Shown here: positions 9,163-63,473 of the stretch, piece by piece
How the letters are laid out: every line of letters begins with the position of its first letter
Position numbering within the stretch: the first letter of the stretch is position 1
Made by a program: the position numbers and the translations under genes
The notes under the pieces: generated by a model
Seen by the model: the letters and a program-made list of their open reading frames with translations, nothing else
Told to the model about the DNA's origin: nothing
The model's database searches: none
NCBI GenBank assembly: GCA_030390025.1
Contig: CM059432.1
Coordinates: 9,796,001 to 9,860,000 of the forward strand
DNA: 64,000 bases
DNA from: Squalus acanthias
Taxonomy: Eukaryota
Reading direction: 5' to 3'

Positions 9163-10176
9163 AAAATGGCAACTGGGGTCCTATTTATCTCATAGGACCC
9201 CAATTGCCATATTAAATGGGGCCTATCACCTGCAACAGGCGGGCGCTCTGGGCACCTGGCGGTAGGCCCCTTTCAAAATGGTGGCGGCCGCATCACCGGC
9301 GTTAACGGGGCGATAAGGCTAGCGAACCCCATTTGAGGCCTCCAACCCAGTCTAAAATTGATAGACTCCCACTGAGCTGACCGTCTGAAACCGGGATCTT
9401 GGAACAGGCGCATAAGTGAAAGCACCATACCTTTCTTCTTCTCTTTATTTTCCTTTCTGTTTTTCTTTATAGTGAATCATAAACAGACTGGCAAATGGCT
9501 ACCTGTGTTTGATTGACACGACTAAGTAATTGGCTGAGGAACACAGGAACAGGAGGAGACCATTCAGCTCCTCGGGCCTGCTCCGCCATTCAATTAGATC
9601 GCGGCTGATCTGCACCTCAACTCCATTTTCCCTCCTTTGCTCCATATCCCTTGATAACCTTACCTAACAAAAATCTACTGATCTCAGTCTAGGAAGCTCC
9701 AATAGTCCCAGTATCCGCAGCCTTTTGGGGGAGAGAGTTCCAAACTTCGACTACCCTTTGTGTGAAAAAGTGTTTCCGATTTTGCTCCTGAATGGCCTGG
9801 CTCTAATTATGACCTAGAAATTCGTTATAGCCAAGGAATGGGCGATGTCAGTAGAAAGTTGGGGGAATTAGCGCCAGCCGCTAATGCTTTAGACTGCACG
9901 CGAAATTCGTGCTCACTGCTCAAAAAAATGATTGGAGTCCTAATTCAAGTCTTAAAACCCAAGCTCATTGGGGTTACACTCAAAGGGTGGAACAATATCA
10001 GGTACAGTCCAATCGCAAGTCATGATTGCCACAGGCTTTTTCCAGTACTTAAAGGGGAGGTTCATTGATGCTGCAGAACCTCATTCTCAGCATTGCTGGC
10101 TGTGCAGCTGCCTCAGCAAGCAAAAGCAGAAGCAGAAGCAAAAATAAGGAGCTGCAGGACTAAAGCAGCTGTACTC

Positions 10177-11228
10177 ATGGTAGATCCACGCCCCAGGGAG
10201 AGAGCCCGCAGATTCTGCGATCAAGCATTGGAGGCGGTGGTTTTCACTGTGGGGAGACAGAGGGCGGTGCTCTACCCGACAAGTGGCAGGAGGCACTCGC
10301 CACAAGTCTTCCGCACCATGTGGAGGGAGGTTGCCCAGCACATCTCAGGCAGCACTGTGGTCCCCAGGACCCACACACAGTGCAGGGAGAAATTTAATGA
10401 CCTCACTCGGGTGGTCAGGGTGAGTGAATGCTTCGACAAATGCTGCACACCACCATCTGTACCACAGTCTTCATACACTGCCCAAAGCACCACGCCCCCA
10501 GCACTCACCCACCAACAATCTCTACCTACCAACACTCACAACCACATTTCACACCTTGCACACAATGACAACTATTCAACCATGGGAGGCACATCACCCA
10601 AACACATTGCTCCACACTCACTCACACACTTTCCTTTCTCTTGCAGGCCAAGGTGGCTCACAACAGGAGGGAGCAGGAGGGGGACAAGCAGACACCCAAC
10701 CACTGTCTTCACTGGAGAATAAAGTGCTGCAGATTATTGGGCGCTAAGTGCTGGGCACCGTGGTCACCGGCGACGTGACCCCCTTGGGAACAATAATGGT
10801 ATGTTCATCCCTACTCCTTCTTCTCATATCCCACTTCCCCCTCACCCCACAAGCGTTACGCAGTTTCCAGCTAATCATGCTGTATGCATGCATTTCTCCC
10901 TTCCTGCCCCCTCCCCTCACCTTAAGCCAACTCTTGTGCCTTTATGCATTCAGATAATCAGCAAGCAGCTGAGCAGCCTGTCCCTGAGGGCACCGTAGAA
11001 AGCGAGGTGGGAGACAAGGAGGAGGAAGAACATACCGCGTCACTGCATCTCTCACCCGCAGACACCAGCTCAGATACTGGCACTATGCATTCTTTAGAGG
11101 CAAGTATAGTCATGAGATCTGCACAGGGTGAGGCACCAGGAATGAGTAGGCTGCAGCAAGGCCAGGGGGAAAGGGTAGCTCGGGAGCCAGCTCCCCGGAG
11201 GGTGAGTTTGCGCGCGAGTTCTACTGCA
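10177..11228 (+). pseudogene. Harbinger Myb/SANT-like DNA-binding gene, spliced (exons about 10177-10419, 10647-10798, 10954-11228), decayed
   Basis: RARRFCDQALEAVV...WREVAQHIS...RTHTQCREKFNDL trihelix motif; GT-AG junctions at the same positions as in copy B. Confidence 0.8.
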
Positions 11229-30019: not shown

Positions 30020-31650
30020 AATGGCAGAGTGGCAGTGGTGGGAGCAGGAATGCTGTCATCCTGAGAGAGGACAGCAGGTTCCTGCTCCACTGACCCACTG
30101 TCACTCCCCCGGGGCAGCACCTCAGCATCCCTAGCAATAAGTTGCAGCACAGATTGCTGATCTGCTGCGACACCGTGGTAGACCCCGTCATGATGGCAGC
30201 AGTCAGAGTTTGCATGGCGTCAAGCTGAGACTGCATGAGAGCAGTCTGAGATTGGATGCCACCAAGCATAGACTGCATTACAGCACTAAGACGTTGCGTG
30301 GCTTCCGCCTGTGCTGCAATGGAAGCTGCCAGATCGCCCATCACAGGTGGCATCAGGTCTGGGTCGCCAGTCTCTCTGGGAGTCTACCATCCTTTGCAGA
30401 TTGGAAATGATGGGCTCCATGGTGTGTGCAGAGCCTTGTGCAATGTTGGAGGTAAACTCCTCCACACTTCTTAACATTGCCGAGAGGCTCTCGGGCACCC
30501 TTGCCATTGCACCTATCACCTCGGTGTGCATGGCCATCACCCTTCTTCTAAACGCCTCCCCATCGAGGTCCTTATCTCAGTCCTGTGCAGCAGAACTCGC
30601 GCGCGAACTCGCCCTCTGGTGAGCTGGCCCCCGAGCTACCCTCTCCCCCTGGCCTTGCTGCAGCCCACCCGTCCCCGGTACCTCACCCTGTGCAGATCCT
30701 GCTACTATACCAGCCTCTAAAGAACGCGTAATGCCAGTGTCTGAGCTGGTGTCTGTGGGTGAGACATGCAGTGATGTGGTGTGTTCTTCCTCCTCCTCTT
30801 CTCCTGCCTCGCTCTCTATGGTGCCCTCTGGGATAGGCTGCTCAGCTGCTTGCTGATTATCTGAAAGCATAAAAGCACAAGCGTCGGTTAAGGTGAGGGG
30901 AGGGGGGCAGGAAGGGAGAAAGGCATGTATACAGCATGATTAGCTGGAAAGTGCGAAATGCTTGTGGGGTGAGGGGGAAGTGAGATGTGAGAAGTAGGAG
31001 TCGGGATGAACATACCATTGTTGTCCCCAAGGGGGTGAACATTGCCAGTGGCCACGGCGCCCACTACCAAGTGCCCAATAATCTGCAGCACTCTATTTTC
31101 CAGCGCAGACAGTGGTTGGGTGTCGGCTTGTCCCCGCCTGTGCGCTCCTGCTCCCTCTTGTTGTGAGCCACCTTGGCCTGCAAGAGAAAGGAAAGTGTGT
31201 GAGTGAGTGTGGTGCAATGTGTTTGGGTGATGTGCCTGCCATAGTTGAATAGCTGCCGTTGTGTGCCAGGTGTGAGCTGTGGGTGTGAGTGTTGGTAGAT
31301 AGAGATTGTTGGTGGGTGAGTGCTGGGGGTGTAGTGCTTTGGCCACTGTGTGCAGATTGTGGTTCAGATGGTGGTATGTAGCATTTGTTGAAGCATTCGC
31401 TCACCCTGACCACCCGAGTGAGGTTGTTAAATTTCTTCCTGCACTGTGTGTGGGTCCTGGGGACCACAGTGCTGCCCGAGACCTGCTGGGCAACCTCCCT
31501 CCACATGGTGCGGAAGACTTGCGGCGAGGGCCTCCTGCCACTTGTCGGGTACAGCACCGCCCTCCGTCTCTCCACAGCGGACAGCAACTCCTCCAATGCT
31601 TGGTCGCAGAATCTGTGGGCTCTCTCCCTGGGGTGTGGATCTGCCATCAT
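30020..31650 (-). pseudogene. Harbinger Myb/SANT-like gene, spliced (exons about 31650-31405, 31177-31016, 30860-30020), decayed
   Basis: RAHRFCDQALEELL...WREVAQQVS...RTHTQCRKKFNNL; GT-AG introns shared with copy A; acidic and coiled-coil-like third exon. Confidence 0.8.
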
Positions 31651-31964
31651 GACACCTGCTTGAGTCGTCTGGCTCCTTGGGCTTGGCCTGCTCCTGCTTG
31701 CTGACACACGTTCACAGCCAGCAATGCTGAGAATGAGGTTCTGCAGCATCAATGAACCTCCCCTCTAAGAACTGGAAAGTGCCTATGGCAATCATGACTT
31801 GCGATTAGACTGCACCTGATATTGGTTAGTGTTTTGAATGTAGCACCACTGAGCTAGGCCATTAGCGCTTGATTTAGCACTTCAATCATTTCTTTGAGCG
31901 ATGAGACTCAATTTTGCGTGCAGCGTGATTCATTAGCGCCTGGCACTAATTTTCAAACTTTTCA

Positions 31965-34290: not shown

Positions 34291-35956
34291 AGTGTATGAT
34301 TGTCACATTGCTGTTTGTGGGAGCTTGCTGTGCGGAGATTGGCTGCCGTGTTTCCCACATTACAACAGTGACTACACTTCAGAAGTACTTTATTGGCTGT
34401 AAAGCGCTTTGGGACATCCTGGTGACATGAAAGGCGCTGTAGAAATACAAGGTTCTATTTTGCTTTCTGTTCTTTCTCCACAGATGCTGCCTGACCTGCT
34501 GAGTTTTTTTTCCAGTATTTCCTGGGGTTTTTTTCATTTAATAAAACGACTTGTGCAGAACATATTTTCTTTCAGTGGTACTTTCTTCCCCCCCCCTAAT
34601 AGTCAGTATTGCTACACTCCCATCAATGTAAGTGCAGTGATCTATCTATTATTAATGTCCTTTGACAGTGGATAACCCTGAGCTCTCCTATTTCTTCTGA
34701 CTCCATGCACAAGTTCCCACTACTGTCCTTGACCGGCCCTACCCTCACCCTGGTCATTCTTTTATTTCTCACATAAGAGTAAAAGGCCTTGGGGTTTTTC
34801 TTGATCCGACCCGCCAAGGACTTCTCATGCCCCCTCCTAGCTCTCCTAAGCTCTTTTTTTAGCTCATTCCTTGCTACCTTGTACCCCTCAATCGACCCAA
34901 CTGAACCTTGTTTTCTCATCCTTACATACGCTTCCTTTTTCCTCTTGACTAGACATTCAACCTCTTTTGTGAACCATGGTTCTCTCACTCGGCCATTTCC
35001 TCCCTGCCTGACAGGGACATACCTATCAAGGACACGCAGTAATTGCTCCATGAAAAAGCTCCACTTTTCGTTTGTGCCTTTCCCTGATAGTTTCTGTTCC
35101 CATCTTATACTCCCTAATTCTTGCCTAATCGCATCATAATTACCCCTCCCCCAATTATAAACCCTGCCTTGCCGTATGGCCCTATCCCTCTCCATTGCAA
35201 TAGTGAAAGTTACCGAATTGTGGTCACTATCTCCAAAGTGCTCTCCCACATACAAATCAAACACTTGGCCCGGTTCATTACCCAGTACCAAATCCAACGT
35301 GGCCCCAGCTCTTGTCGGCCTATCCACATATTGTGTCAGGAAACCCTCCTGCACACACTGTGCAAAAACTATCCCATCCGAACTGTTTGACCTATAAAGG
35401 TTCCAATCAATATTTGGAAAGTTGAAGTCACCCATGACAACTACTCTGTGACCTCCACACCTATTCATAATCTGCTTTGCAATTTCTTCCTCCACATCTC
35501 TATTACTATTTGGGGGCCTGTAGAAAACTCCTAACAACGTGACCGCTCCTTTCCTATTTCTAACTTCAGCCCATATTACCTCAGACGGCAGATCCCCCTC
35601 GAACTGCCTTTCTGCCGCTGTTAAACTATCCTTGATTAACAATGCTACTCCTCCACCTTTCTTACCAACTTCCCTACTCTTACTGAAACATCTATACCCC
35701 GGAACTTCCAACAACCATTCCTGTCCCTGTTCTAACCATGTCTCCGTAATGGCCACCACATCGTAGTCCCAAGTACCAATCCACGCTCCAAGTTCTCCTA
35801 CCTTATTCCGGATGCTCCTTGCATTGAAGTAGACACACTTCAAGCCATCTTCCTGTCTGCCGGTACATTCCTGCGACCTTGATACCCTCCTCAGTACCTC
35901 CCTACACTCACCACTGGCTCCTGGACTACAGCCCTTTTTCCCATCCCCCTGACAAA

Positions 35957-36883
35957 TTAGTTTAAACCCCCCCGAAGAGCCGTAGCAAATTTCCCTCCCA
36001 GGATATTGGTGCCCCTCTGGTTCAGGTGCAAACCGTCCTGTTTGTACAGGTCCCACCTTCCCCAGAATGTGCTCCAATTATCCACATAACTGAAACCCTC
36101 CCCGCTACACCATCCCTGCAGCCACGTGTTTATCTGCACTCTCTCCCTGTTCCTCAACTCGCTAGCACGTGGCACCGGCAACAAACCAGAAATTACAACA
36201 TGGTTTGTACTGGCTCTCAGCTTCCAACCTAGCTCCCTAAATTCCTGTTTTAAATCCCCGTCCCTTCTCCTACCTATGTCGTTGGTACCGATGTGTACCA
36301 CGACTTGTGATTGTTCCCCCTCCCCTTTGAGGATTCTGAAAACACGGTCCGAGACGTCACGGACCCTGGCACCCGGGAGGCAACATACCATCCGTGAGTC
36401 TCTTTTGCTGCCACAGAACCTCCTATCTGTCCCTCTGACTATTGAGTCCCCAATAACTATTGCTCTCCTGCTCTCCCCCCTTCCCTTCTGAGCCACAGGG
36501 ACGGACCCAGCGCCGGAGATCCGGTCACCATGGCTTACCACTGGTAAGTCGTCCCCCTCAACAGTATTCAAAGCGGTATACCTGTTACTGAGGGGAACGA
36601 CCACAGAGGATCCCTGCACTGACTGCTTCCTCCTAGCCCCTCTCACCGTCACCCATCTATCTTCATGCTTTGGAGTAATTACATCCCTGAAGCTTCTATC
36701 TATGACCTCCTCTGCCTCCCGAATGATCCGAAGTTCATCCAGCTCCAGCTCCAGTTCCCTAACACGGTTTTCGAGGAGCTGGAGATGGGTGCACTTCCCA
36801 CAGGTGTAATCAGCAGGGACACCTACGGCGTCCCTCACCTCAAAAGTTCTGCAGGAGGAACATTTCACTGCCTCCCCTGCCAT
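35957..36883 (-). CDS. CR1 ORF1p (zinc finger, coiled coil, SGNH esterase), open 308 aa
   Basis: CSSC..CGKC, VIGDSIVRG, CLPGA, HIGTND and DGLHLN blocks are all present with no stop. Confidence 0.9.
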   Translation of the reverse strand: MAGEAVKCSSCRTFEVRDAVGVPADYTCGKCTHLQLLENRVRELELELDELRIIREAEEVIDRSFRDVITPKHEDRWVTVRGARRKQSVQGSSVVVPLSNRYTALNTVEGDDLPVVSHGDRISGAGSVPVAQKGRGESRRAIVIGDSIVRGTDRRFCGSKRDSRMVCCLPGARVRDVSDRVFRILKGEGEQSQVVVHIGTNDIGRRRDGDLKQEFRELGWKLRASTNHVVISGLLPVPRASELRNRERVQINTWLQGWCSGEGFSYVDNWSTFWGRWDLYKQDGLHLNQRGTNILGGKFATALRGGLN

Positions 36884-37077
36884 CCCCTCCAGCTAACTTG
36901 CAGATTAAACTAGAACAAAAAAGAGCTTACCTGATAGTCACTCACCTCCTTTAGGTTAGAGGGGGAGGAAGGGTGGGGGACACTACAAGTGTAGTGTCTC
37001 GGGTTTAGGAACCGCCCAACTTATATACAGGTAAAAATTAATCACCTACCCAGCAACCACTGCGTCCCGCACTTTAG

Positions 37078-42843: not shown

Positions 42844-43012
42844 TAATAGTAGTGCAGCCTGCTGTGCAGTACACGATTGACTGTAATTCACCTGCGTTGA
42901 ATGCATGAGTCCAAAAATGTGCGGGTTAGGTTGATTTGGCTATGATAAAAAATAAAAAAATAAATTGACCCTTAGTGTTAGGGGGGGATTAAATATGTGG
43001 GGTTATGGGGAT

Positions 43013-46000
43013 TGTCATAAATCGCAAGTAACAACTCAGGAAGTACTACTGGGCGGCCAGCTGGGGCGCCGTCCAGGGAGTATAAATACTCAGGCATGGG
43101 CCCACCTTGGGCAGAGACAATCTGGAAACAGGAAGCTAGTGACTGCTAACTAGACCTCCATGTTTTGTTACAAGTTGATTAAAGCCTTGCTTTATGTTCA
43201 AGTGCGTAGTGAGTCTTTATTGCGTCAATTTAATCAACTTGGTATCGTCTCCACGCTTTGGGTGATTCGGAACAACCAGCTGCAACTCGAACCACAGAAG
43301 GCAACTTGGGCAAGAAACTGATCCATCATGGAAAAACTCCTTAGACCCGCTCGTCTCGACCTGGACCCGAATGCACCTGCGGCAGCAAAGGTATGGAAGC
43401 ATTGGTTTCGTACCTTTAGCAACTTTCTTGAAGAATGTGGGGTGGATGTCCCTAATAAGTTACGAATGCTTATCAACTACGTGTCTCCTCATGTGTATGA
43501 TTATATTGAGGACTGTATAGACTATGACACTGCTATCGAAATCTTACAGCAGCTATATGTCAAGTCCCCAAATGAAATCTTTGCTCGACACCTACTGGCC
43601 ACAACTCGGCAGCAGCCTGGGGAATCACTCGATGAATTTCTCCAGAAACTTCGCAGGCTCAGCAAGGATTGTAACCTTAAAGCAGTTTCAGCTGAACAGT
43701 ATCAAGAGGAACTAATCCGCGATTCCTTTATCAATGGAATCGCGTCCCCTTTTATACGTCAGCGCCTGCTGGAAAATAAAGCCCTCAATTTACGGGCTGC
43801 TTATGACCAGGCGTGTTCCTTGGACTTGGCCAAGAAAAATGCAGACACTTATCTCCCACCACGTGCACGGGCGGCGGCTATCTCCTTTAATGAGTCTTTC
43901 GGTAGGTCTCGGGCGGATGCCCCCACTGATGTTGACTCTACTCTAACGGACGACGACCCTACCCTAGAGGCCTTCGCTGATGACGACCCCGCCCTAGCAG
44001 CATCCTGGCAATCAGGAAGAAAGTGTTTCTTTTGTGGAGGGGCGTGCCATCACAGAAAATTTTGCCCGGCTCGTAATGTGACCTGCAATCATTGCAGCAA
44101 GAAAGGACACTTTTCCAAGGTATGCCAGTCACGGGCCTTTGCTAACAAGAAAGGCCGCTCCTCTAAAGTATACCGGTCGAGAGCTCCTGTTAGCTTCACA
44201 GCTGCTATCTATGGAGCTGCTCCTCCCCCGAGAACTACTGTTAAGGCTACAGTTGCCGAAGGGAAAATTGCCCCTCCTCCCATCACGGCTGTTTTTCCCC
44301 AAAGTTTGTCCCATGCAGCCACGAAGGTTTCAGTAAATGGGCACACTCTAAGCGCGCTAATCGACTCCTGCAGCTCTGACAGCTTCATTAGTAAGCGGGC
44401 TGTCAACAGGTTAAAGCTGCACATTTATCCCTCGGACAGGGAGATTGCAATGGCTCTGACGACTCTGACCACCAATTCTTCTGGCTTCTGTCTGGTCAAC
44501 CTCATCCTCAACGGCCGCACGTATCGCTCCACCCGGCTCGGAGTACTCGCAAACTTATGCAGCGATGTGCTTCTGGGACAGGACTTCCAGAAGCAGCACA
44601 AGAAGATCACTTTTGAGTTTGGAGGGTCAAGGCCGGAGCTTACCATTTCTAAGGTGCCGTTTTGTGCACTCTCGGCGGCCTTACTCGGTGAACCCTCCCT
44701 GTTTGCCAATCTTCCCCCCCGCTGTAAACCCATAGCCACCAAATCGCGGCGCTTTAGCCAAGATGATCGAGCGTTTATTGAGGCGGAAATCTCTCGCCTT
44801 TTAGTCGACGGTATTATCGAGCCATGTTCATCTCCCTGGCGGGCTCAGGTCGTCATCGTGAGGAATCCCTTAAAACAACATAAAAAACGTCTGTGTATCG
44901 ATTATTCGCAGACTATTAATCTATATACCGATCTGGATGCCTACCCGCTGCCACGCATAGATGACATGGTCAACAACCTTGCCAAATACAAGGTATTCTC
45001 GACCTTCGATTTAAAAAGCGCGTACCATCAGGTGCCACTGCAAGACTCCGACAAGAAGTATACGGCCTTTGAGGCCAATGGTCGGCTTTTCCAGTTTCGC
45101 CGCCTTCCATTCGGGGTCACCAATGGGGTGGCCGTCTTCCAACGGGCCATGGATGGCCTAGTCCGGCAAGAGAACTTGACGGATACCTTTCCGTATTTAG
45201 ACAATATCACTATTGCCGGCCATGATCAAAAGGAGCATGACGCCAATCTTCAGAGATTTTTTGACGTACTCCGCCGTCGCCACTTAACGTTAAACGAATC
45301 CAAATCGGTGAAGTCGGTGCCATCGGTGAACATTCTTGGCTACTGGGTGGGCAACGGTGTTATTAAACCAGACCCAGAGCGACTTCGTCCACTTCAGGAG
45401 CTCCCTCCCCCGACGAACTCGGCTCTCTTCGTCGGGCACTTGGCATGTTTGCTTATTACGCAAAATGGATACCACACTTCTCCGATAAAATACAGCCCCT
45501 GCTCCATGTGAAGTCTTTTCCATTGGAAGCTACGGCTATTTCTGCCTTCAACCTCCTCAAACGACAGCTGGAGAAAGCCACGCTTCGCTCCATTGACGAA
45601 AATCTTCCTTTTGTGGTCGAATGCGATGCATCGGAGGTGGCGATCTCCGCTACCTTGAATCAAGGTGGCCGACCCGTGGCATTCCTATCCAGAACCTTGC
45701 AGGGTAGCGAGCTCCATTACCCCCCCGTCGAGAAGGAGGCTACGGCCATCATCGAGGCTGTACGCCAATGGGGTCATTTTCTTGCTCGGCATCATTTTAC
45801 GCTTATAACTGACCAGCGCTCTGTGGCCTTCATGTTGGATAACCGGAGGCGCACGAAAATCAAAAATAATAAAATTCAACTCTGGAGGATGGAGCTGGCT
45901 GCCTTTGGATATACTATCTGTTACCGACCCGGCAAACAGAACGTGGCCCCAGATACCTTCACACGGGCATTTTGCTCCTCAATGTCAACGTCGACTCTGG

Positions 46001-47514
46001 CGGATTTGCATATGGACTTATGCCATCCTGGTGTGACCCGCATGTTGCACTTTGTGCGCTCCAAAAATCTACCATTTTCAACCGAGGACGTAAAGAAAAC
46101 ATGCTCCTCCTGTAGGATTTGTGCAGAATTGAAACCACAATTCTTTCGCCCATCAGATGGCTTACTCATACATGCAATGCAGCCTATGCAGAGGCTCAGC
46201 ATAGACTTTAAAGGGCCATTGCCTTCGTCGACAAGGAACACCTACCTACTTACGATGGTGGACGAGTATTCACGCTTTCCCTTCGCCTTCCCCTGCCCTA
46301 ATATGCTTACCTCTACGGTAATTAAATGCCTCGATCAGGTCTTTTCCCTTTGCGGGACGGCCAATTTTATCCACACTAATCGGGGTCCCTCCTTTATGTC
46401 GAGTGAACTTAAAAGTTATCTCTCTCAACGGGGAATCGCCTCAAGTAGGATGACACCATATCACCCAATCGGTAACGGACAGGTTGAACGATACAATGCC
46501 ATCATCTGGAACGCTGTCCGTCTGGCACTAAGGTCACGCAACCTGCCGGACCAGCAGTAGGAAACGGTGCTCCCCGACGCGTTACACTCTATCAGGTCTC
46601 TTCTCTCCACATCTACTAATGTCACGCCTCATGAGCGATTCTTCAAATTCCGGCGTCGCTCTACACATGGGACGTCTCTACCGTCATGGTTGGTGGCTCC
46701 AGGCCCGGTGCTACTCCGGAGGTTCGTCCGGTCTGCCAAAAACGACCCTCTCGTTGACGAGGTGGAGTTAACGGAGGTAAACCCCACGTATGCGCACGTA
46801 CGGTACCCTGATGGCCGGGAGACCACCGTCTCGCTCCGAGATCTGGCTCCCTGCCCAACCGGTCACACGGGCCCGAATGATCCCCCGACAATGATATCAA
46901 CACTCCGCACCCCTATGAAAATGACGCCCCGCCTGGGATATCGGGGGATCTGCTGGCAACGCTACCGGATCAACTCAGGGAGCTGGACGCTCCCCGTAGG
47001 ATGGCCACCCGAAACCAGGACGCCGGACAATCTCCAGCCACGACCCGGGATGAGGCCAGCTCAGCACCTGTGGGGACCCGCACCCGGAGTCATGATATTC
47101 CCAGTCCTCCACAGGATGATCAAGATGACGCGGACTCTACTGACTTACCGGTACGGGCCAAGCGACCCAGGGACCAGGACACGGTCCGGGGAGACGTGCC
47201 TTCCAGTCACAAGCAGAGAGCTAAACGTCTGCGGCTATTTCTGGTCCGCCTAGTCCGTTAAAGGAAGACTGGACTTCCAAACCTTTTAGGGAGGAAGAAT
47301 GTCATAAATCGCAAGTAACAACTCAGGAAGTACTACTGGGCGGCCAGCTGGGGCGCCGTCCAGGGAGTATAAATACTCAGGCATGGGCCCACCTTGGGCA
47401 GAGACAATCTGGAAACAGGAAGCTAGTGACTGCTAACTAGACCTCCATGTTTTGTTACAAGTTGATTAAAGCCTTGCTTTATGTTCAAGTGCGTAGTGAG
47501 TCTTTATTACGTCA
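43013..47514 (+). mobile_element. Full-length Ty3/Gypsy LTR retrotransposon (4502 bp), TSD GGGAT, inserted in an HE1-like SINE remnant
   Basis: LTRs 43013-43227 and 47300-47514 (215 bp, TG..CA, one difference seen); TSD at 43008-43012 and 47515-47519; PPT AGGGAGGAAGAA at 47288-47299; TATAAA at 43081; ATTAAA at 43178. Confidence 0.97.
43328..46900 (+). pseudogene. gag-pol: Gypsy gag-pol polyprotein (CCHC, protease, RT, RNase H, integrase) with a frameshift near 45420 and a TAG at 46558-46560
   Basis: CNHCSKKGHFSKVC; LIDSCS; RLCIDY, DLKSAYHQ, LPFGVTN, YLDN; ECDAS, EKEA; H..CHPG..CSSC, SIDFKGP, GNGQVER. The 3' end of the ORF is approximate. Confidence 0.93.
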
Positions 47515-47799
47515 GGGATAGGATGGGATATGTTAGGGGGAATTAAATACATGGGGTTACGGGGGTAGGGTGGGATTTGTGTACTGTGGGGATTAAAACA
47601 GGGACAGGGTACTGGATTTGGATGATCAGCCATGATTGTATTGAATGGTGGAGCAGGCTCGACGGGCCGAATGGCCTACTCCTGCTCCTAGATTCTATGT
47701 TTCTATGTTTCTCTGAAGAGGCTAGATCAGTGCAAGAATTAAATGCGCAGCTTTTCACCACCTTTCAGATATAGGCCCATAAATGAGACCTGAGATCTT

Positions 47800-52059: not shown

Positions 52060-53742
52060 AAAGGGGTCAGAGGATCTGGTAAGAGGGAGGAGCTGAGGGA
52101 AATCCTTATTAGTCGGGAAAAGGTATTGGGGAAATTGATGGGACTGAAGGCTGAAAAATCCCCGGGGCCTGATGGTCTGCATCCCAGAGTACTTAAGGAG
52201 GTGGCCTTGGAAATAGTGGATGCATTGACGATCATTTTCCAACATTCCTTAGACTCTGGATCAGTTCCGATGGAGTGGAGGGTGGCCAATGTAACCCCTC
52301 TTTTTAAAAAAGGAGGGAGAAAGCAGGGAATTATAGACCGGTCAGCCTGACATCGGTCGTGGGTAAAATGATGGAAGCAATTATTAAAGATGTCATAACA
52401 GACCATTTGGAAAGTGGCGACATGATAGGTCCAAGTCAGCATGGATTTGTGAAAGGGAAATCATGCTTGACAAATCTTCTGGAATTTTTTGAGGATGTTT
52501 CCAATAGGGTGGACAGGGGGGAACCAGTAGATGTGGTGTATTTGGACTTTCAGAAGGCCTTCGACAAGGTCCCACACAAGAGATTGGTGAGCAAAGTTAA
52601 AGCACATGGGATTGGGGGTAATGTGTTGACGTGGATTGAGAACTGGTTGGCACACAGGAAACAAAGAGTAGGAGTAAATGGGTACTTTTCAGAATGGCAG
52701 GCAGTGACCAGCGGGGTACCGCAGGGTTCGGTGCTGGGACCCCAGCTGTTTACATTATATATTAATGATTTGGACAAAGGGATTAAATGTAATATCTCCA
52801 AATTTGCGGATGACACTAAATTGGGAGGCAGTGTGAACAATGAGGAGGATGCTAGGAGGCTACAGAGTGACTTGGACAGGTTGGGTGAATGGGCAAATGT
52901 ATGGCAGATGAAGTACAATGTGGATAAATGTGAGGTTATCCACTTTGGTGGTAAAAATAGAGAGGCGGACTATTACCTGAATGGTGGCAGATTAGGGAAA
53001 GGGGACGTGCAACGAGACCTGGGCGTCATGGTACATCAGTCACTGAAGGTGGGAATGCAAGTGCAGCAGGCAGTCAAGAAAGCAAACGGAATGATGGCCT
53101 TCATAGCAAGGGGATTTGAGTACAGGAGTAGGGAGGTGATGCTACAGTTGTACAGGGCCTTGGTGAGGCCACACCTGGAGTATTGTGCGCAGTTTTGGTC
53201 TCCTAACTTAAGGAAGGACATTCTTGCTATTGAGGGAGTGCAGCGAAGGTACACTAGATTGATTCCTGGGATGGCCGGAATGACATATCAAGAAAGATTG
53301 GGTCAACTGAACTTGTATCCTCTGGAGTTCAGAAGAATGAGGGGGGATCTTATAGAGACATTTAAAATCCTGACTGGTTTAGACAAATTAGATGCGGGCA
53401 GAATGTTCCCAATGGTAGGGAAAACTAGAACCAGGGGTCACAGTCTAAGGATTAAGGGGAAGCCATTTAGGACTGAGCTGAGGAGGAACTTCTTCACCCA
53501 GAGAGTGGTGAATCTATGGAATTCTCTTCCACAGAAGGTTGTTGAGGCCAGTTCGCTAAATATATTCAAAAGGGAGTTAGATATAACACTCACAATTAAG
53601 GGGATCAAGGGGTATGGCGAGAAAGCAGGAATGGGGTACTGAGGTAGCATGTTCAGCCATGAACGCATTGAATGGCAGGTGCAGGCTCGAAGGACCGAAT
53701 GGTCTACTCCTGTACCTATTTTCTATGTTTCTATGTTTCTAT
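52060..53742 (+). mobile_element. Young CR1 LINE, 5'-truncated, with open 427 aa RT ORF (52359-53642)
   Basis: [13 protein letters not shown] and KFADD motifs; one frameshift near 52320; (TTTCTATG)n tail. Confidence 0.95.
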
Positions 53743-61631: not shown

Positions 61632-63473
61632 CATAGAGTTATACAGCACAGAAAGAGGCCCTTCGGCCCATCGTGTCCGTGCCGGCCATCAAGCCCTGTC
61701 TATTCTAATCCCATTTTCCAGCACTTGGTCCGTAGCCTTATATGCTATGGCGTTTCAAGTGCTCATCTAAATGCTTCTTGAATGTTGTGAGGGTTCCTGC
61801 CTCTACCACCCTTTCAGGCAGTGAGTTCCAAATTCCAACCACCCTCTGGGTGAAAACATTTTTCCTCAAATGCCCTCTAAACCTCCTGCCCCTTACCTTG
61901 AAACTATGCCCCCTGGTTATTGACCCCTCTACTAAGGGGAAAAGTTCCTTTCTATCTACCCTATCTATGCCCCTCATAATTTTGTACACCTCAATCAGGT
62001 CCCCCCTCAGCCTTCTCTGCTCTAAGGAAAACAACCCCAGCCTGTCCAGTCTCCCTTCATAGCTGAAAGCGCTCCAGCCCAGGTAACATCCTGGTGAATC
62101 TCCTCTGCACCTTCTCCAATGCAATCACATCCTTCCTACAGTGTGGTGACCAGAACTGCACACAGTACTCCAGCTGTGGCCTAACTAGCGTTTTGTACAG
62201 CTCCATCATAACCTCCCTGCTCTTATATTCTATGCCTCGGCTAATGAAGGCAAGTATCCCATATGCCTTTTTAACCACCTTATCTACCTGTTCTGCTGCC
62301 TTCAGGGATCTATGTACATGCACACCAAGGTCCCTCTGATCCTCTGTCCTTCCTAGGGTCCTACCATTCATTGTGTATTCCCTTGCCTTGTTAATCCTTC
62401 CAAAATGCATCACCTCACACTTTTCAGGGTTAAATTCCATTTGCCACTGTTCTGCCCATCTGACCAACCCGTCTATATCCTCCTGTAGCCTAAGGCTTCC
62501 CTCCTCGCTATTTACCACTCCACCAATTTCCGTGGCATCTGCGAACTTACTGATCATACCTCCTACATTCATATCTAAATCATTAATGTACACTACAAAC
62601 AGCAAACGACCCAGCACCGATCCCTGCGGTTCACCACTGGACACGGGCTTCCAGTCACAAAAACAACCTTCGACCATCACCCTCTGCCTCCTGCCACTCA
62701 GCCAATTTTGGATCCAATGTGCCAAATTGCCCTGGATCCCATGGGCTCTTACCTTCTTGACCAGTCTCCCATGCGGGACTTTGTCAAAAGCCTTACTGAA
62801 GTCCATGTAGACTACATCAACTGCACTACCCTCATCCACACACCTAGTCAGCCCCTCAAAAAATTCAATCAAATTGGTTAGACATGATCTCCCCCTGACA
62901 AAGCACTGCTGACTATTCTTGATTAATCCTTGCCTCTCCAAGTGGAGACTAATTCTGTCCCTCAGAATTTTTTCCAATAATTTCCCTACCACTGATGTTA
63001 GGCTCACTGGCCTGTAATTCCCTGGTTTATCCCTCCTACCCTTCTTGAATAATGGTACTACATTAGCTGTCCTCCAGTCCTCTGGCACCTCCCCTGTAAA
63101 AAATTGAGAGGTCGCACAACACCAGGTTATAGTCCAACAGTTTTATTTGAAATCACAAATTTCAAATAAAACTGTTGGACTATAACCTGGTGTTGTGCGA
63201 CCTCTCAATTTTGTCCACCCCAGTCCAACACCGGCATCTCCGCATCATGACCTCCCCTGTAGCCAGAGAGGTTCTGAAAATTTATGTCAGAGCCCCAGCA
63301 ATCTCCTCCCTTGCCTCACACAGCAGCCTGGGATACATCTTGTCTGGGCCTGGGGATTTATCCACTTTTACACCCGTTAAAACCGCTAGTACCTCCTCCC
63401 TCTCAATAGTAATTTGTTCAAGAATATCACAATCCCCCTGCCTGATTTCGATGCCTGCATCGTCCTTCTCCAG
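61632..63473 (-). mobile_element. CR1 LINE ORF2 RT region
   Basis: ORFs 62057-63088 and 61738-62124; catalytic FADD appears as FADA. Confidence 0.95.
63099..63249 (+). mobile_element. Palindromic mini Penelope-like insert, 12 bp TSD ACCTCCCCTGTA
   Basis: TSD at 63087-63098 and 63250-63261; perfect inverted arms of about 54 bp around a CACAA loop. Confidence 0.88.

Follow-up and report, generated by a model that had tools for sequence, protein, structure and literature searches.

The window, that is, the whole 64-kb stretch of DNA analysed here, carries a young Ty3/Gypsy element of 4.5 kb (43013-47514) without a chromodomain, sitting among LINE fragments and LINE 3' ends (Table 1). Features that place the element in this superfamily are its TG...CA LTRs, target-site duplication and polypurine tract, the order of protease, reverse transcriptase (RT), RNase H and integrase among its Pfam matches, and its Ty3-like RT. 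The best matches among solved structures were 4ol8 (E 3e-27) and the Ty3-G Gag-Pol structure 7q5b (E 2e-26). The two LTRs are identical at 214 of 215 positions, with the single difference at 43222, and the coding region is present in three pieces, divided by a frame break after RT and by an in-frame stop (46558-46560). The leader between the primer-binding slot and the gag start (43242-43327) measures 86 nt and is shorter in most relatives (about 3-57 nt). Elsewhere in the window, two related frames (10069-10722 and 31093-31764) encode a Myb/SANT-like domain, with a Pfam match for the first; such frames are found in Harbinger-type DNA transposons. CR1-like LINEs are represented by long pieces with ORF1, endonuclease and RT, as read from their translations, at 34623-36892 (minus strand), 52308-53642 and 62057-63142. 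Judged by its repeats, the DNA would come from a cartilaginous fish.

Table 1. Features of the Ty3/Gypsy element and its immediate flanks (window coordinates).
Feature	Position	Strand	Basis or remark
5' target-site duplication GGGAT	43008-43012	.	sequence; same 5-mer at 47515-47519
5' LTR, 215 bp, TG...CA	43013-43227	+	sequence; CA end at 43227
TATA box candidate TATAAATA	43081-43088	+	sequence; 90 nt upstream of arm
Putative self-primer arm CAAGTTGATTAAA, ending in hexamer ATTAAA (43178-43183)	43171-43183	+	cut predicted after 43183
GCC-led segment 3' of arm, weak hairpin	43184-43205	+	folding; pairing probability about 0.5
U5 hairpin, ending 3 nt before slot	43204-43225	+	MFE and centroid folds
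Primer-binding slot TTTAATCAACTTG	43229-43241	+	one spacer base (43228) after LTR
gag (Cys/His-rich zinc-knuckle-like region), protease, RT with YLDN; frame breaks after RT	43328-45511	+	ORF list, Pfam
RNase H and integrase zinc-binding/core, other frame	45367-46560	+	ORF list, Pfam; in-frame stop 46558-46560
Integrase C-terminal part, without chromodomain match	46561-47253	+	ORF list, Pfam
Polypurine tract AGGGAGGAAGAA	47288-47299	+	sequence
3' LTR	47300-47514	+	sequence
3' copy of arm, no slot downstream	47458-47470	+	pattern search
3' target-site duplication GGGAT	47515-47519	.	sequence

The family was found nearly identical across at least six organism codes, with 71-85% of the sampled words present in at least 20 runs from 9 studies. 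Depth over the LTR was several times that over the internal region (window 43013-44199, runs X1-X20), which suggests that many solo LTRs exist in this family. Genomic flanks were present in runs X3 and X9, which are only presumed to be of RNA.

Our analysis confirmed that the slot behind the 5' LTR is the exact reverse complement of a stretch within that same LTR, the arm, at the positions given in the first-pass annotation. The slot/arm pattern matched three times in the 64 kb where 0.10 matches were expected, and none of 100 shuffles reached three. The analytic chance of a complementary 13-mer inside the LTR is about 4e-6, and 0 of 300 shuffled LTRs of the window element reached 13 nt. The slot-arm duplex is present in both the MFE and the centroid fold; for the complete 220-nt leader, shuffled sequences fold equally well (z -0.42). 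No TGG, the usual start of a tRNA-type site, adjoins the LTR, as had also been annotated, and the first TGG is found at 43240, i.e. at slot position 12. This triplet was rejected as a tRNA site: three out of three contig runs read A at 43242 (TGA), so that the TGG is particular to the window copy. ARAGORN detected no tRNA genes in the 64-kb window, and no Rfam match was obtained for the LTR and leader region 43000-43340; a tRNA-like origin of the arm region was discarded on the same grounds, as no Rfam match appeared up to an E value of 5.

For a comparison with relatives we used an RT search, which returned 615 long relatives. Among the 120 relatives listed, most were of the YLDN type and about 30% of the YLDD type, and the named ones derive from a nematode, insects, a prawn, a sea anemone and a ray; cluster members carried no name or were labelled 'uncharacterized'. 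Viral contigs yielded no relatives, either with the single RT query or with an alignment. An alignment of 60 RT relatives led to 80 metagenome loci, which together with the window element gave 81 sequences, 31 of them with a gag start and 25 of these with a usable upstream LTR; L005, L017, L022, L040, L056 and L060 were left out for lack of the latter. The 25 copies were sorted by eye into 17 groups, with intact copies picked as representatives in two groups. RT identity to the window element ranged from 50 to 73% across groups. Since L001, L003, L004 and L055 are close kin, the sample amounts to about ten or eleven independent lineages. The accompanying RT tree covers this clade alone. LTR ends were set by LTR pairs where both were present and otherwise by the CA-spacer-T motif before gag, a rule that fixes the first slot bases and not the pairing. 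Four metagenome contigs (L004, L011, L012 and L026) are permuted, with the polypurine tract and one LTR directly before slot and gag, and resemble collapsed repeats or one-LTR circles. On contig L012 (about 2190-2330) an 18-nt LTR stretch upstream of the arm is directly repeated in the leader, and this repeat overlaps the end of the unusually long (18-nt) slot of that copy.

Of the 25 copies, 19 have a slot with a perfect complement of 13-18 nt in their own LTR; counted by group, this holds for 14 of 17. The covariation check that the first-pass annotation had proposed was thus borne out, with complementarity recurring in relatives well apart from the window copy. In each of the 14 groups 0 of 300 shuffles reached the observed pairing length, which is exactly 13 nt in seven groups and shorter in none of the 14. 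When slots and LTRs were combined across groups, 268 of 272 combinations paired over 10 nt or below, and the four exceptions were groups sharing the same arm. The 14 groups use 12 different slot 13-mers. Columns 6, 7, 9, 11, 12 and 13 of the 13 switch among two or three Watson-Crick pair types, each in at least three groups, and between the sister lineages L006 and L010 (support 96/99) four paired positions differ on both sides. The last two arm bases are AA in all 14 groups and the arm end WAA is invariant. The register is fixed as well: in 14/14 groups the slot sits one spacer nucleotide beyond the end of the LTR, where a primer-binding site (PBS) belongs. The window arm is composed of A or T at 10 of 13 positions; a chance inverted repeat in AT-rich DNA can nevertheless be practically dismissed, given that the pairing recurs, with compensatory changes, across 14 of the 17 groups. 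A link of the pairing to YLDN-type elements, as the annotation had assumed, did not hold, since L026 and L035 show the pairing and are YLDD.

Three groups (L016, L045 and L055) are without perfect pairing in the 5' LTR. Six copies fail: a single mismatch is present in each of L007, L008, L043 and L045, the arm is gone from the 5' LTR of L055 while its 3' LTR keeps a near-match, and no arm was seen in L016. From their near-matching arms L045 and L055 look like decayed copies.

TGG is absent from the first 10 slot bases in 14/14 groups, and in none of the 14 was a TGG-led PBS found within 0-5 nt of the 5' LTR. It is the combination of covariation, fixed register and missing TGG that gives good support to the tRNA-independent self-priming proposed in the first-pass annotation, and the slot-arm duplex of this clade is very probably a signature of self-priming. 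According to a competing explanation, the slot would be used by a host RNA primer (a tRNA, a tRNA half or another small RNA), and its complementarity to the LTR would be secondary. Some arm features extend beyond pairing, with G at position 10 and T at position 8 in 13/14 groups, and the window element shares its slot 13-mer with L010 although the two are not sisters; moreover, the Dictyostelium element DGLT-A is described as having a TGG site without a matching tRNA (PMC5006619). However, we regard priming by a host RNA as very improbable, because no slot starts with TGG in the 14 groups, every one of the 12 slot variants is matched by the LTR of its own element, a change in L009 was followed on both sides within one family (see below), and neither a tRNA in the window nor an Rfam match in the LTR region was found. 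The sharing with L010 is even longer than the slot: window 43171-43186, the arm plus GCC, consists of the same 16 bases as 4426-4441 of L010/L027/L029, a family whose RT is only 59% identical to that of the window element and whose sister family has a different arm. These 16 bases would be either ancestral or constrained by more than pairing.

Two of the relatives bear on how arm and slot might be kept matched. Copy L009 is 97.8-98.8% identical to four sisters, yet its two LTR arms share a G-to-T difference that is matched by a change in the slot. By our own estimate the chance of such a matching second hit is near 0.002 at about 0.6% change per lineage. The double change would be explained in one step by a primer copied into the plus-strand PBS, for which it is suggestive evidence; two-step compensation under selection could also have produced it. 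In L007 a slot base that differs from three sisters extends the LTR match beyond 13 nt, which hints at a primer longer than 13 nt at its 5' side; the same copy has an arm change in both LTRs without a counterpart in the slot. Inheritance of the primer sequence is described for retroviruses, half of the time, and is denied for Ty1 and Ty3 (PMC7472051); copying of the primer is thus no general feature of the superfamily. For Tf1, a DNA copy of the PBS is reported to persist in the cDNA (PMC11042837).

The arm ends in a canonical poly(A) hexamer, AATAAA or ATTAAA, in 7 of 14 groups, and in the other seven it ends in GTTAAA, TTTAAA, TTAAAA or AATTAA. In L002 and L003 a canonical hexamer lies outside the duplex. 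Folding of the window copy left its hexamer 81-100% paired in the 5' context, while in the 3' context it was mostly paired with the LTR alone and mostly open with the flank included. The first-pass annotation had suggested a switch that hides the poly(A) signal in the 5' LTR only. The paired 5' hexamer and the seven groups with a canonical arm end are in agreement with such a switch, but it is not clade-wide, and the freeing of the 3' hexamer depends on the stretch that is folded. Masking of the 5' poly(A) signal is plausible for the window family, at most as a secondary function; it cannot be the reason for a clade-wide duplex and is likely a side benefit where the arm ends in a canonical hexamer. 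A stronger version would see in the duplex nothing but a regulatory hairpin, for 5' poly(A) hiding, packaging or translation, with another primer binding elsewhere or after opening of the hairpin. A hairpin over AAUAAA regulates polyadenylation in HIV-1 (PMC2645353), and the pairing of the 5' hexamer would fit a similar role here. Yet the non-canonical arm ends, the hexamers outside the duplex in L002 and L003 and the 3' hexamer that is not clearly free all argue against this explanation; masking furthermore needs no fixed 1-nt register to the LTR end, and the element would be left without any primer site. We therefore consider a solely regulatory hairpin quite unlikely.

Probably, then, minus-strand synthesis starts from RNA of the element itself, cut after the arm, with the 5' copy of the arm acting in cis. 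The transcript of the 5' LTR carries a 13-nt arm able to pair with the slot one base past the LTR end. Such a duplex would form in cis and close the loop between arm and slot, which measures 20-67 nt depending on the family. RNase H might then cut right after the 3' end of the arm (43183), by analogy with Tf1, in which the PBS is paired to the first 11 bases and the RNase H cut falls between base 11 and base 12 (PMC7175516; PMC4600332; 10.1101/2022.12.06.519325). In relatives the predicted cut site would usually coincide with the junction between the duplex and a small RCCU/AGGY hairpin. The cut would yield a 3'-OH pointing into U5, from which RT could extend through the spacer, U5 and the remainder of R until the cut is reached, and then jump to the 3' R via the stretch from the hexamer to the poly(A) site, perhaps 10-30 nt in length. 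R regions of 11-21 bp are reported to work in retroviruses (PMC3601003). Plus-strand copying of the primer could finally rewrite the slot and thereby keep the arms matched. Because no sequence 5' of the cut would be needed as a template any longer, a cap at the arm and one far upstream of it would both be compatible with this scheme.

The 5' and 3' copies of the arm are indistinguishable by sequence comparison, and the first-pass annotation had considered the copy in the 3' R (47458-47470) as the primer. The end of the RNA would in that case be trimmed or cut to the arm (47470) and pair with the slot in the same or a partner RNA, and strong-stop DNA would run to the cap. The identical arm in the 3' R, the arm ends at a poly(A) hexamer in 7/14 groups, near the natural RNA end, and the short remainder of LTR after the arm in L011 (23 nt) and L035 (20 nt) are compatible with this route. 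However, it would need the same cut plus removal of the tail, and it would have to outcompete a 5' copy lying only 20-67 nt from the slot and presumably able to pair during transcription. We found nothing that favours the 3' copy and consider it an unlikely primer compared with the 5' copy acting in cis. Insertion sites were inspected for 3' flanks resembling the slot, as in integrase-independent Tf1 insertion, and this idea was dropped: only 1 of 13 flanks fell below 5% of the local background. The resembling flanks of L007, L027 and L035 were set aside likewise, some of these copies having ordinary target duplications.

The bases directly 3' of the arm are RCC in 12/14 groups. The motif AGGY occurs at +8 to +15 after the arm in 8/14 groups against 1.9 expected (0 of 2000 shuffles), although this pattern was chosen post hoc. 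Folds stack the RCCU/AGGY hairpin directly onto the primer duplex, and the hairpin is clear in many relatives; a plain test of stem length after the arm was marginal (13/500). The window copy lacks AGGY, and its hairpin after the arm is listed as weak in Table 1. Within the U5 hairpin of the window copy the LTR difference at 43222 keeps its pair; this hairpin is not general across the groups and bears only a partial likeness to the Tf1 pretzel. A pretzel duplex between post-slot and loop sequences received no support, since summed over the 14 groups shuffles were as strong or stronger in 197/200 cases; in the same test, loop folding was matched by 28 of 200 shuffles.

Among described systems the closest likeness is to Tf1 and Tf2 of Schizosaccharomyces pombe, Tj1 of S. 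japonicus and the Tf1/sushi group of chromoviruses, which are Ty3/Gypsy elements without a tRNA site and with a PBS complementary to their own 5' LTR (10.1101/2022.12.06.519325, PMC4600332, PMC7175516). As described there, a Tf1-type primer depends on cleavage where the duplex ends on its 3' side, and the same is predicted for the window clade. The two differ in several respects. No chromodomain was found in the integrase piece of the window element (Pfam), in three full-length relatives (E 0.1) or among the precomputed domains of any of the 120 relatives listed, in contrast to Tf1/sushi. The duplex comprises 13-18 nt in the window clade and 11 in Tf1, and the arm, located at the cap in Tf1, ends at a poly(A)-type hexamer in the window clade, where its place may be 30-60 nt into the transcript. 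Instead of the post-PBS duplex of the pretzel, which is unsupported in the window clade, a local hairpin directly follows the arm. By these sequence features, no chromodomain and no pretzel, the clade is not filed here as a member of Tf1/sushi. HIV-1, which is tRNA-primed, forms its polyA hairpin at both RNA ends, whereas the partner strand in the window element lies outside the LTR, has no counterpart at the 3' end and coincides with the primer site. What HIV-1 and the window element share is a poly(A) signal in a stem near the 5' end (PMC2645353). Self-priming has also been predicted for plant Tcn1 chromoviruses and for TAR (Houba/Osr-1) copia elements from a slot complement of at least 10 bp in the 5' LTR; these belong to another superfamily or lineage and have plant hosts, and plant non-chromoviruses are described in the same source as tRNA-primed (PMC6317226).

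Compared by description only, the window element resembles metazoan non-chromovirus Gypsy clades (Mag A/B/C, Cigr-1, Tor2, CsRN1, MolGy) in its single gag-pol frame, short LTRs, absence of env and wide range of animals. Cigr-1 we take to be a similar element of 4.2 kb, as a lead only. The available text of two surveys of mollusc and annelid Gypsy elements (PMC6238403, PMC8556966) does not mention primer sites, and a motif search in part of the supplements of PMC8556966 gave 0 matches. The available parts of PMC2577118, PMC2774666, PMC3601003, PMC10680173 and PMC5443660 contain no primer data for such a clade. Other unusual cases in the literature are the odd primer sites of Skipper and DGLT-A (PMC5006619) and bivalve TRIMs reported to be without a PBS (PMC6934838). 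In the literature searched, with most subscription papers and Repbase/GyDB entries outside it, we found self-priming described for Tf1/sushi, Tcn1 and plant TAR copia elements only and for no animal non-chromovirus Gypsy clade, though such a description may be in print. Self-priming is treated as a mark of the Tf1/sushi group, to which a few predicted plant cases are added. If our reading is true, a second, chromodomain-less Gypsy lineage across many animal phyla would mean that self-priming arose again. A large class of animal LTR elements would then need no tRNA and would presumably offer no PBS target for silencing by tRNA fragments, a mechanism reviewed in PMC7472051. In annotation, programs that define a PBS by tRNA matches only will score such elements as lacking a primer site.

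Promoter-like motifs of the TATA and initiator types were used for placing the cap relative to the arm; such motifs are weak evidence for a cap. TATA-like motifs were found upstream of the arm at distances of 90 nt in the window element, 62 in L061, 57 in L002 and 32 in L012, and none was found in the last 170 nt of the LTR in ten groups. Initiator-like motifs lie at -58 relative to the arm in the window element, at -32 in L061, and at -15, -7, -3 and -1 in others. The start site of the window element may accordingly be placed near 43111-43113. The first-pass annotation had emphasised that the arm is located far from the expected cap site. The motifs give a mixed picture: in the window element, with the arm 90 nt past the TATA box, and in L061 they would put the start 30-60 nt upstream of the arm, but in L012, L004 and L068 promoter-like motifs coincide with the 5' end of the arm. 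Such a spread fits a cut, and not the cap, as the feature that would define the working end of the primer. For the window copy we slightly favour an internal primer, whose 5' tail would measure about 60 nt, over a cap-proximal one. More tentatively, and with some doubt on our side, these observations might be combined as follows: a widespread animal Gypsy clade outside the chromoviruses would have evolved self-priming on its own, using a hexamer-ended primer cut from inside R at the helix-hairpin junction with its capped 5' tail kept, and one duplex would both block early 5' polyadenylation and start reverse transcription. An internal primer, if true, would mean that R and U5 have to be defined differently in this group, and it would predict a single bond whose cleavage is readable from existing end data on RNA or cDNA. 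In runs X5 and X9, contigs share just the TATA region (43078-43114) with the window element and then diverge, pointing to a possible second LTR family with the same core promoter.
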